In this document: in pieces, positions 4,438 through 7,400 of the stretch | How the letters are laid out: every line of letters begins with the position of its first letter | How positions within the stretch are numbered: the stretch's first letter is position 1 | Assembly: GCA_020137815.1 (NCBI GenBank) | Contig: CM035358.1 | Location: forward strand, 744,001-808,000 | Source of the DNA: Hormiphora californensis | Taxonomy: Eukaryota > Animalia > Ctenophora | Direction of reading: 5' to 3' | Length of the DNA stretch: 64,000 nucleotides | Position numbers and translations under genes: made by a program | Notes under the pieces: generated by a model | Seen by the model: only the letters and a program-made list of their open reading frames with translations | What the model was told of the DNA's origin: nothing | Database searches by the model: none

Positions 4438-7400
4438 ATGGGCCGAAGGGACAGCTCCAGAGATCGAGGATGGCGTGGTGGTGGTGGAGGTGGAGGGGGA
4501 AGATACCCATTTTATGGGTACACCGAGACTCGATTCACAGAGGATAAGGTAATACACCTGCACCATTTAGACTCAGAGAGGCAACTTGGTGGCGCTGTCA
4601 CCTCTCGCGCACGAGTTGTAAAAGGGTGATTGCGTCACCGGGGGTGGGGGGGGGGGCGTCACCAAAGAGACAACTTGGTCTATTAATTTATCGTTTCACT
4701 TTGTTTTTTCACACTCGGGGATCCGGTCCGATTGAGCACTGTTGCTGTGAATTCGTGTGGCTTTGTTATGTTCTAAATCTGATCCGCCCTCCTTTTATTA
4801 TTAAAATGTGGAGAAGTAGGGCCCGATTCTTTCTCGTTTAGAACATGTCAAGTAATATGCTATTATAGCATTGACATGCTCTAACTCTTTGTCTCTCCCC
4901 TGTATTGTTAAAAACATAGAAGGAAATATACGTCTGTGAAATGTGTCATAGCACCTATTGCACCAACCTTCTAACTTCATCACCCTGTGGCCCCCTCAAT
5001 TAGGAGAGAGTGAAACGAGACACTTCCGCGTATAACACTCGAGACGTACTGCACGTGACCGAAAACACGTGACTCATCACGTGAAAGAGAGATAGAGTGA
5101 AAACGCTCGCGTGTGAAACTGGAGACTGAGTATAAATCCCCAGTGCTGAGAGAGCGTGTATTTAGAAACTTTGAAAGCTTCTATTCAGTGTCCTTCCTTC
5201 CTGGCCTATCCTTACACCCCTCTCTCTCTCTCTCTCTCTCTCTCTCTCTCTCTCTCTCTCTCTCTCTCTCTCTCTTCTCTCTCTCTTTCTCTCTCTCTCA
5301 CCTCTCTCTCTATCACTCTCTCTCTCTCTCTCACACACTTCTCTCTCCCTTTCTCTCCCTCTCTCGTCCAACTCTCTTTGTCTCCTAGAACAAACAATTC
5401 GCGACTATCACCCCCCGGGGTCCCTCCTTCCTAGTTTACCGGCTATTAGGGATTGTATAATTTGAATAACAATTTATCATGACCTCCCAAAATTGAGATA
5501 ATGACTAGGGACATCATTTTCTCCCTGAGGCTTCACTTACACATTCCCCCCCCCCTCTCCCTCTCCCTCTCTCACCCTCTCTATATATTCCCTTTCTTAA
5601 GCTGGCATCACGATCTATCCTATTTTACTGCTCTCTCTTTCTACACACATGCTCTGATCTGAAAGAAGAGCCAATCTCTCTCCCTAACCCCCTTCTCTCT
5701 TTCCTTCGTTCTCCCTCTCCCATCTCTGCCCTCTCTTTCTTCCTCTGTACAATCACCAGCTAATCGACCCACGCCACCTGTGATGCTAAGTTCTATCCTC
5801 AAACTCTTTTTTCTCTCTCTCTCTCTCTCCCCATACATCTCTTCTTTCACCCCCAGTTAGCTCTCTCTAATACTATAACAACTCTCCCACTTTGTTTGCG
5901 TGTCCCATCCACTAGATACATCCTGCCTGTTTCGAGTTCCCCCGAAGTTTGTTCCCTAAAACTTTACCCCATTTGCTGATAGGGGGCTCGTTCGGTGTCG
6001 AGTCACTGGTGTATAATATCTAATAGTGAGGAAGTTTTCTCCTTCCGGCTGGACAAATTGAGTAGACGGGGTTTTTATCGTAGAAGAACGCTATTAATTT
6101 CGGTGCACAGCACCATCATCAGGTTCAAATTAATTTGTTTAAAGTAGTGTTGAAAAGTTTTGTGACATCCCTAGTTTGCAGTGTTGAAAAGTTAGATAAT
6201 CCCTAATATTAGAAAAATCTTTCTTTTGTTCTTCTAACCCACTCTCAGGACCTTTATATGTAGAGTTAGAGCTTGAACTTCCATACCACTCAATTAATCC
6301 ACAATCCCTCCCATCTCCAGATCATATGGATTGGTGGGCTGAAGAAAGCGTGCGAGGTGCGGGACCTCTACGAGCACTTCTCCCGATTCGGCTCCATTGA
6401 TGATATTCACCACGATACTGAGGGGAGGATCGCCTGGATCTGGTTTAACTATCCCCGTGACGGTAGGTGGAGGGATAGAGAGAGAGAGAGAGAGAGAGAG
6501 GGGGGGAGAGAGAGATAAAGAGATAGAGATAGAGATAGAGGGAGAGAGAGAGAGGGAGTGAGAGAGGGAGAGGGGGAGAGATAGAGAGAGAGAGAGAGAG
6601 AGAGAGAGAGAGAGAGATAGAGGGGGAGAGAGAGAGAGAGAGAGAGAGAGAGAGAGAGAGAGAGAGAGGGGATGAGCATGCTTATGAATCCTTTCATGAC
6701 GTCTTCTTCACACACACTCTACTTCAAGCACTGTGACGTTAGAAAATCTCTTTGAGACACACGTCACATAAAAAACTGTTCTTAGTGTCACTACTTAGGT
6801 CACTCGCCCTCCCCCCAGATCTCTCCTTTGTACTTTGACACGATGCTTTTCCGGCATCAACAACCACGATATAATAGCACACGAAAGTTGGCCATATATC
6901 GGTTATTGACGTGCTATTTCTGCCCTTTTGATCACAATCCATATCTTTTCTCAGCCCGAGAGGCGGTCCGAGGTATGGACAGGAGAGAATTCATGAGGAG
7001 CCCAGTTTCAGTTCAGTATAGTCAGTGGCGACCTTCAGAATCTCCTAAGTTTGTAAAGCTAACTGAGAAGTGAGTAAAAAACAACTTGTCCGCTGGTTAT
7101 GATATGTTCTTTGTCACTCCTTCGCTCCTTTATTCCCCTTTATCTCATCTCTCTCTCTCTCTCTCTCTCTCACTCTCTCTCTCTCTCCTCTCTCTCTCTC
7201 TCTCTCTCTCTCACTCTCTAACTCCGTTTTGTTTATGTGGGTGCAGCAGTATATCTATTTCCTCTCTCCACTCAGTGTGTATCCCTCGTCAATTCAACCC
7301 TGCTTTTATTGTGTCACTCTGTTTCTGAAATTTGAACAGTGCAATAAGCGGGACAATTCTGCAAGATAACCCAAAGACTAGCGGGATAGAGCCTTGCGTG

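Follow-up and report, generated by a model that had tools for sequence, protein, structure and literature searches.

Penelope-like retroelements provide the nearest described counterparts of the locus discussed here. The Penelope pLTR of Drosophila virilis carries a minimal type I hammerhead ribozyme with an extra base after position 9, a G10.1-C11.1 pair, a small palindromic helix III, and a short helix I; the splice junction lies at the 5' end of helix I, the spliced and unspliced ribozymes differ, and, in the sections of the report drawn on here, the cis-intron is kept in genomic copies and most hammerhead motifs are dispersed single copies (PMC4209133). In the Anolis Poseidon element PAc, an autonomous tandem element that is leaderless in the portion of the paper cited, the cut falls 26 nt after the ORF start, and reverse transcription begins at an AC-rich stem-loop that lies 111 to 118 nt inside the ORF (PMC11167929). 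The Penelope elements of Adineta vaga, according to excerpts of their description, have short pLTRs with the first codons, palindromic 5' junctions, and solo copies (PMC3846280), and inverted 5' ends are typical of Penelope-like elements, in which solo pLTRs are also known (PMC8557442, PMC3846280). Do minimal hammerheads cut in vivo, given their low in vitro activity (PMC4209133) and the absence of reads ending at the cut site in the cited portion of the Anolis study (PMC11167929)? Which strand is copied, given that an antisense template was proposed to explain the introns that Penelope elements retain (PMC3846280)? Both are open questions in the papers cited.

Spliced leaders that were added by trans-splicing and then fixed in DNA by reverse transcription are also on record. 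About 30% of the long reads of Hydra transposable elements carry a leader (PMC12220107), flatworm loci with leaders number 597 in one report (PMC12582326) and six in another (PMC5832876), and dinoflagellates have leader-bearing retrogenes (PMC5585692, PMC6050394). In the excerpts of these papers that bear on the subject, the carriers are LTR or LINE elements or genes, and no leader joined to, and pairing within, a ribozyme is mentioned. Ctenophore genomes are rich in leader copies, with 718 reported in Hormiphora californensis and 491 in Mnemiopsis (PMC8527503, as far as its cited part extends). Finally, animal non-LTR retrozymes are short, non-coding sequences with a type I hammerhead that have been proposed to be Penelope derivatives; as described in the parts cited, they form tandem units of 150 to 450 bp that give circular RNA (PMC7229834; bioRxiv 10.64898/2026.07.22.740005).

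The locus that we describe lies in a 64,000-nucleotide stretch of Hormiphora californensis DNA (the window), and its element is a 134-base repeat, 6160-6027 on the minus strand, in which a single C links a spliced leader to a minimal type I hammerhead with a 65-nt tail behind it (Table 1). It resembles D. virilis Penelope in each of the ribozyme traits given above, in having its junction at the 5' end of helix I, and in its dispersed single copies. With Anolis PAc it has in common an ATG at the start of stem II, a predicted cut about 25 nt later, and a fixed 3' end at an internal stem-loop about 90 to 118 nt past the ATG, and with the A. vaga elements a short pLTR-like form with putative first codons, palindromic 5' junctions, and solo copies. 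In contrast to the retained cis-intron of D. virilis Penelope, the junction here appears as a spliced product with a host leader, and no ORF was found; unlike PAc, some copies start at the cut site; unlike the A. vaga elements, the 5' leader implies a sense, spliced template; and unlike the retrozymes, the copies are single, lie in diverse flanks, and are headed by a leader. Leader-bearing transposon RNAs have been published, and so has an intron that ends at helix I, but the combination was not found in print: a search by titles and the beginnings of abstracts, with incomplete coverage of subscription papers, returned no publication on a leader joined to a hammerhead. We judge it fairly probable that the copies are retro-copies of a trans-spliced Penelope-type RNA, with reverse transcription initiated internally.

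Table 1. Features of the leader-hammerhead element, its second copy, and contigs that span the leader-ribozyme join
Feature	Position or contig	Strand	Remarks
Spliced-leader copy	6124..6160	-	First 7 nt of the 44-nt ctenophore leader missing; final base G>A, private to the window copy
First base past leader	6123	-	Position 2.1 of the hammerhead, paired with G6091
Minimal type I hammerhead core	6092..6122	-	Palindromic helix III; predicted cut after 6092
Two in-frame ATGs	6114..6119 (ATGs at 6119 and 6116)	-	Inside the ribozyme; putative start codons
65-nt tail	6027..6091	-	3' strand of helix I, then body; common family 3' end
Partial second leader copy, 14 nt	6180..6193	-	Upstream of the full leader; found in both individuals
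Candidate decayed target-site duplication, 5' copy	6196..6208	-	11/13 to 6025-6013; weak
Candidate decayed target-site duplication, 3' copy	6013..6025	-	Weak
RRM-coding exon, host SR-type gene	6321..6462	+	RRM_1 E 7.8e-4, just under the curated cut-off
Inverted arm	33462..33474	+	Pairs with the first bases of the second copy as a 13-bp fold-back
Second family copy	33475..33539	+	Begins one base past the predicted cut; without leader or core
Other dispersed leader copy	49857..49893	-	Clean end, without GT donor, joined to unrelated sequence
Join-spanning piece	X2 rec12		15 differences and 4 gaps versus window
Join-spanning piece	X5 rec18		15 differences and 4 gaps versus window; likely same locus as X2 rec12
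Join-spanning piece	X2 rec15		4 differences versus window
Join-spanning piece	X9 rec28		12 differences and 6 gaps versus window

Leader, tail, and genomic setting

Contigs assembled from public runs were aligned to the site. Runs X2, X5, and X13 belong to organism A; X2 may come from the source of the window itself, X5 is from a different sample and study, and X13 is taken as RNA by guess. X9 belongs to organism B, a second species. Summed contig depth was not used as copy number, and a second alignment offered just 17 nt of the leader, excluding leader-only contigs.

The preliminary description had taken the 37-mer at the head of the element for a spliced leader, and this identification holds: in a by-eye comparison, 36 of its 37 bases are identical to the last 37 nt of the published ctenophore leader (PMC8527503), the sole mismatch being the last base, 6124, and these 36 bases also stand at the front of many unrelated contigs in run X13. 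The copy is not a spliced-leader RNA gene, an identity that we reject because no GT donor stands directly 3' of the leader exon, where CCT follows at 6123. The 14-nt partial leader upstream likely arose by slippage at the 5' junction; the spacer between the partial and the full leader (within 6193-6161) resembles the upstream flank. The other dispersed leader copy of the window, at 49893-49857, is likely a retroposed fragment of another leader-capped RNA; after it come unrelated sequence and a tandem repeat (49323-49738).

At its 3' end, 90 nt from the ATG at 6116, the tail forms a 5-bp hairpin around an A-rich loop (6046-6030). The A-rich stretch is internal to the element and is not a poly(A) tail. 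Past approximately 6033-6027 the loose ends of the contigs disagree (agreement 0.59 to 0.67; 7, 10, and 16 contigs in X2, X5, and X9), which indicates that the copies have their 3' end in common and continue into unrelated flanks without poly(A). The claim that the body recurs near 33478-33540 is likewise upheld: 6090-6027 and 33478-33539 are 87.5% identical across 64 nt (E 1e-15). Retroposition, as had been suggested, is supported. A short MITE-like element with 41-bp inverted ends (33538-33820) directly adjoins the second copy at its 3' end.

The element sits in an intron of an SR-type gene, in antisense orientation and upstream of an RRM exon. The first exon of this host gene (4438-10557, plus strand) is Gly-rich; the gene also has RRM exons and, at 9472-10557, a long exon rich in Ser, Lys, and Arg. 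The candidate target-site duplication around the element has a null fraction of 0.045 at its 11 of 13 matches, and no empty-site joint is listed in X2 or X5. Elsewhere in the window, Pfam marks a rhodopsin-type 7TM receptor (57091-58266, minus strand), FAM194 exons (15288-16421, minus strand), and a Haspin-kinase-like exon (3838-4149, plus strand). Long inverted-repeat elements with arms 92 to 99% identical lie at 13751-15215, 16496-17680, 31751-32909, 34545-35942, and 43665-44180; by eye, no leader or hammerhead core is present at the ends of seven large palindromes in the window.

The leader-ribozyme join at other loci

Is the join between leader and hammerhead peculiar to this one copy, or does it belong to a family? 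At least four pieces (32 of 1,393 are listed) span the join with at least 31 letters on each side and differ from the window (Table 1), and at least five further DNA pieces among those listed span it with one shorter side. In the 17-nt-leader alignment, X9 depth is flat at 2160 over 6115-6129, and 83% of the core-covering depth reaches 6140, into the leader. The window locus itself, with the same flanks, is found in both individuals of organism A. The junction is therefore not unique: the same join recurs at other loci, in a second individual, and in a second species, which bears out the proposal that it is a family trait.

The end of the leader at this join can be read from the contigs. On the element strand, G at 6124 accounts for 5720 of 5820 depth in X2 (20 contigs), for 10,286 of 10,286 in X5 (24 contigs), and for 15,654 of 15,654 in X9 (21 contigs), all of these counts including leaders on other exons. 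The residual depth of 100 in X2 equals that of the unique flanks (95 to 104), so the A of the window at 6124 is a private change; no X5 contig has A. Nor is there an indel at the join among those listed in the contig alignments. The family thus reads G, the clean end of the leader, and the argument for template switching that the preliminary description drew from an unclean junction falls away. A switch from the ribozyme RNA to a leader-bearing RNA, with later amplification of the chimera, would still suit the window's own junction, which is off by one base, and the partial second leader at 6193-6180 suggests slippage near the 5' end. Against this stand the exact leader end at the family junction in two species, without a listed indel, and the coincidence of that junction with the end of the Penelope intron as given in the cited part of PMC4209133, such that we consider a template switch very improbable.

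A further alternative is target-specific insertion beside pre-existing leader copies, which are abundant as dispersed sequences. Retrotransposons that home into leader genes, namely NeSL and SLACS/CRE, are known. Insertion of this kind, however, is difficult to reconcile with leaderless truncated copies such as 33475-33539, which adjoin no leader, with diverse 3' flanks that show neither a leader-end duplication nor a GT intron, and with a duplication candidate that, though weak, encloses the leader. We regard it as the most improbable of the readings considered here.

The retrozyme option fares no better than the unclean junction did. The copies in the window are single, no tandem units are seen, the 3' flanks are diverse, and no go-back joint is listed. 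Membership among the non-LTR retrozymes is rejected on the tandem units that define that group, with the qualification that the contigs, which break within the repeat, may hide rare arrays.

A Penelope-type hammerhead

The ribozyme reads CUGAUGA at 6122-6116, followed by an extra U at 6115, a 5-bp helix II (6114-6110 with 6106-6102), GAAA at 6101-6098, a perfect 6-nt palindrome at 6098-6093, and H17 at 6092. A hammerhead descriptor has one match in the window, at 6122, whereas of 60 windows resampled with a first-order Markov model, 4 contained a single match (mean 0.067). Rfam did not score the hammerhead, neither at gathering nor at E up to 10.

Helix II covaries: positions 6113 and 6103 both vary, from G-C to A-U, with depths of 1361 and 1052 in X2, 2254 and 1430 in X5, and 205.1 and 205.1 in X9. 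No variant is listed at the core positions in these three DNA runs, and the five variable places in 6091-6123 all avoid the 14 core places, a modest result (p ~0.05). The remaining variants fall in loop 2 (6107), in the helix III palindrome (6095), and at H17 (6092, A to U), and the common 6095 variant, by inspection, retains a wobble-paired dimer helix. Rather than the decay of core and helices that would speak against a ribozyme, then, what is observed is a core without listed change and a compensated helix II, and from these sequence patterns the ribozyme looks to be under selection. The extra base after position 9, the G10.1-C11.1 pair, and the palindromic helix III are those of the Penelope minimal hammerhead (PMC4209133, in the sections cited); together with the CUGANGA/GAAA core, the UH site, and the helix II covariation, they bear out the assignment to that type.

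Helix I is where leader and ribozyme meet. In the window copy, only C6123-G6091 pairs in register, and in the lowest-energy fold the strands of helix I are shifted by two bases against each other. With the family G at 6124, which the leader supplies, helix I of the main sequence type gains a second pair and so has two firm pairs and a weak extension, a shortness that counts against our reading. A variant 3' strand, GCUC, occurs in the loose ends of X8 and X2 and is complementary to the last three bases of the leader plus C6123; helix I would reach four to five pairs if a leader precedes this strand, the leader status of those two contigs lying outside the displayed letters. Thus, the leader may complete helix I in some subfamilies. 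It had been claimed that the leader replaces most of the 5' strand of helix I and thereby weakens self-cleavage. Helix I is not simply removed, since the last bases of the leader supply it; the weakening is not supported, for it rests on the private change at 6124, because of which the window copy is itself likely a poor ribozyme. AG is the end of the leader and of a native acceptor alike, so the inner pairs of helix I would survive splicing.

The two in-frame ATGs inside the ribozyme match in position the start site of the Anolis Penelope-type ORF, with the predicted cut 25 nt past the ATG, and may have served as start codons. The frame comprises 14 codons in the window copy, codon 15 being a stop, and the indels listed in other contigs include few that would shift it, from which it follows that most copies do not stem from an ORF intact in this frame, a point against our reading. 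In the second copy the corresponding frame stays open for 22 codons, which by itself is not significant.

Cut-site starts, fold-back ends, and the reverse transcriptase

Among the 20 longest of 190 pieces, 13 have clipped 5' ends, and 5 of these ends lie within 6090-6093 (post hoc p 5e-4, assuming a uniform model), where a 2-nt indel at 6089-6091 could also clip alignments; loose letters are displayed for two of these five pieces. The second copy in the window likewise begins at the cut site. X5 depth, by contrast, has no sharp step there (8680, 7165, and 6232) and drops more at 6065-6079, which counts against cleavage-derived copies. Fold-back 5' ends occur in two copies, the second copy of the window and X8 rec11. 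In total, the traits of Penelope-like elements found here are inverted or palindromic 5' junctions, a fixed 3' end, and the absence of poly(A).

Which enzyme made the copies? A Pfam scan of 150 of the 178 window frames of at least 75 aa (24 low-complexity and 4 other frames were left out) found no Penelope reverse transcriptase or GIY-YIG domain, which counts against a Penelope-type reading. The single RVT_1 match (E 4.5e-21) is a 462-aa frame at 1399-2784 on the minus strand that looks LINE-type and not Penelope-type, and LINEs are present in the window. A protein search with the 40-aa frame at 33474, a weak test with 18 aa outside the element, returned nothing at E up to 10. These results speak for copying of a short trans-spliced ribozyme RNA by a LINE or other non-Penelope reverse transcriptase. 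However, no poly(A) or simple-repeat tail is present, the 3' end is not common to the reverse transcriptase element of the window, and both the fold-back 5' ends and the type of ribozyme are Penelope traits in the cited portions of PMC4209133, PMC8557442, and PMC3846280. We consider copying by such an enzyme improbable and continue to favor a Penelope-type reverse transcriptase.

Related sequences were also sought farther afield. A metagenome pattern scan gave 11 loci, none with leader or tail, of which ten (L001-L010) resemble this hammerhead core and seem to lie in AT-rich DNA of other eukaryotes; the pattern was derived from the element itself, and the alignment of cores is thus not independent support. 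No Penelope-like ORF is evident by eye in the frames of these loci. In L003-L010 the core is nearly identical and no leader is seen, L007 being an inverted pair, whereas L011 was rejected as a chance match in GC-rich coding DNA. The junction pattern had no match in viral contigs, and its 33 matches in prokaryote genomes, with best alignments of 19 to 27 bases, were set aside as chance. None of these scans produced a ctenophore locus.

A candidate unspliced form

If leaders are added by trans-splicing, can copies that precede this step be found? One X9 contig departs from the leader at 6130 even when the whole leader is offered. Its 30 displayed letters (element strand) contain a run of T, a tract rich in T and C, and, some 23 nt ahead of the junction, CTAAC; this motif is similarly placed before 1.7% of the 8,863 AG sites of the window. 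Approximately 290 of the 2160 X9 depth ends at 6130, and the same arithmetic reproduces the next two bins. Since unique-looking X9 contigs have a depth of about 50 to 80, this fraction may represent several copies. We regard the contig, in which branch-point-like sequence replaces the leader and the seven bases next to the junction fall outside the displayed letters, as a candidate unspliced form; a leader cut to 7 nt could produce the same departure. In X5, about 1054 of 4672 depth stops exactly at 6123, and X5 rec5 (depth 26.5) has 37 non-leader letters upstream, known by their number and not displayed. A non-leader acceptor form is thus possibly present in organism A as well.

The RNA data are sparse. 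X13 does not cover the core or tail, X7 and X8 provide two contigs each at a depth of 3 to 6, and contigs cannot reveal caps or strand. One RNA-library contig, X7 rec10 (depth 4.3), contains the join, but about 150 nt precede its leader, which indicates read-through or DNA and not a capped end.

These observations bear on the main rival explanation, in which the leader is hard-wired: a single old event of trans-splicing and retroposition would have given rise to a master copy headed by the leader, and a non-autonomous, SINE-like family would have spread from it, inheriting the leader as DNA. Such a history would accommodate the 83% of core-bearing depth that continues into the leader in organism B, the closed ATG frame of the window copy, the one junction common to different sequence types, and the RNA runs in which no capped transcript appears. 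The candidate non-leader acceptor form in organism B, and possibly in A, does not fit it, and no promoter is evident. Moreover, leader copies on unrelated sequence are very common (the loose ends before 6125 agree at 0.43 to 0.45 in the DNA runs, and the cited part of PMC8527503 gives 718 copies), so that fresh capping needs no special step. On balance, we find a hard-wired leader rather unlikely.

Proposed mechanism and outlook

We therefore return to retro-copying of a trans-spliced Penelope-type RNA, which could proceed as follows. A source locus with a native acceptor would be transcribed, and trans-splicing would add the leader 4 to 7 nt before the AUG, at the 5' end of helix I, the point to which the intron of D. 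virilis Penelope extends (PMC4209133, in the part cited). A Penelope-type reverse transcriptase would then start at the tail hairpin, about 90 nt past the AUG, and copy back to the leader. Uncut RNA would yield leader-ribozyme-tail copies, RNA cut by the ribozyme, probably as a dimer, would yield copies that begin at the cut site, and fold-back of the cDNA would give the hairpin ends. Seen in this way, the element would work like a Penelope solo pLTR, and we propose it as a candidate member of that group, known from leader, ribozyme, and tail without an ORF. The introns that Penelope-like elements are reported to keep, and the antisense template proposed for them (PMC3846280, in excerpt), count against this reading. 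Leader addition, on the other hand, is possible only on sense RNA after transcription, and leader-headed copies would thus mark a sense, spliced template.

We speculate further, and with less conviction, that the pLTR intron acceptor of ctenophore Penelope-type elements became a trans-splice site, at which the leader both caps the RNA and supplies the 5' strand of helix I. Trans-splicing would then set the activity of the ribozyme, the ribozyme would remove the cap, and uncut and cut RNA would both be kept as DNA. This idea is tentative, and we would not be surprised to see it fail.

If the mechanism proposed here is correct, cleavage by a minimal hammerhead in vivo would be recorded in the copies with cut-site starts, and a product of host splicing would form part of a ribozyme fold. 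It would also explain part of the dispersed leader copies that ctenophore genomes contain by the hundreds.
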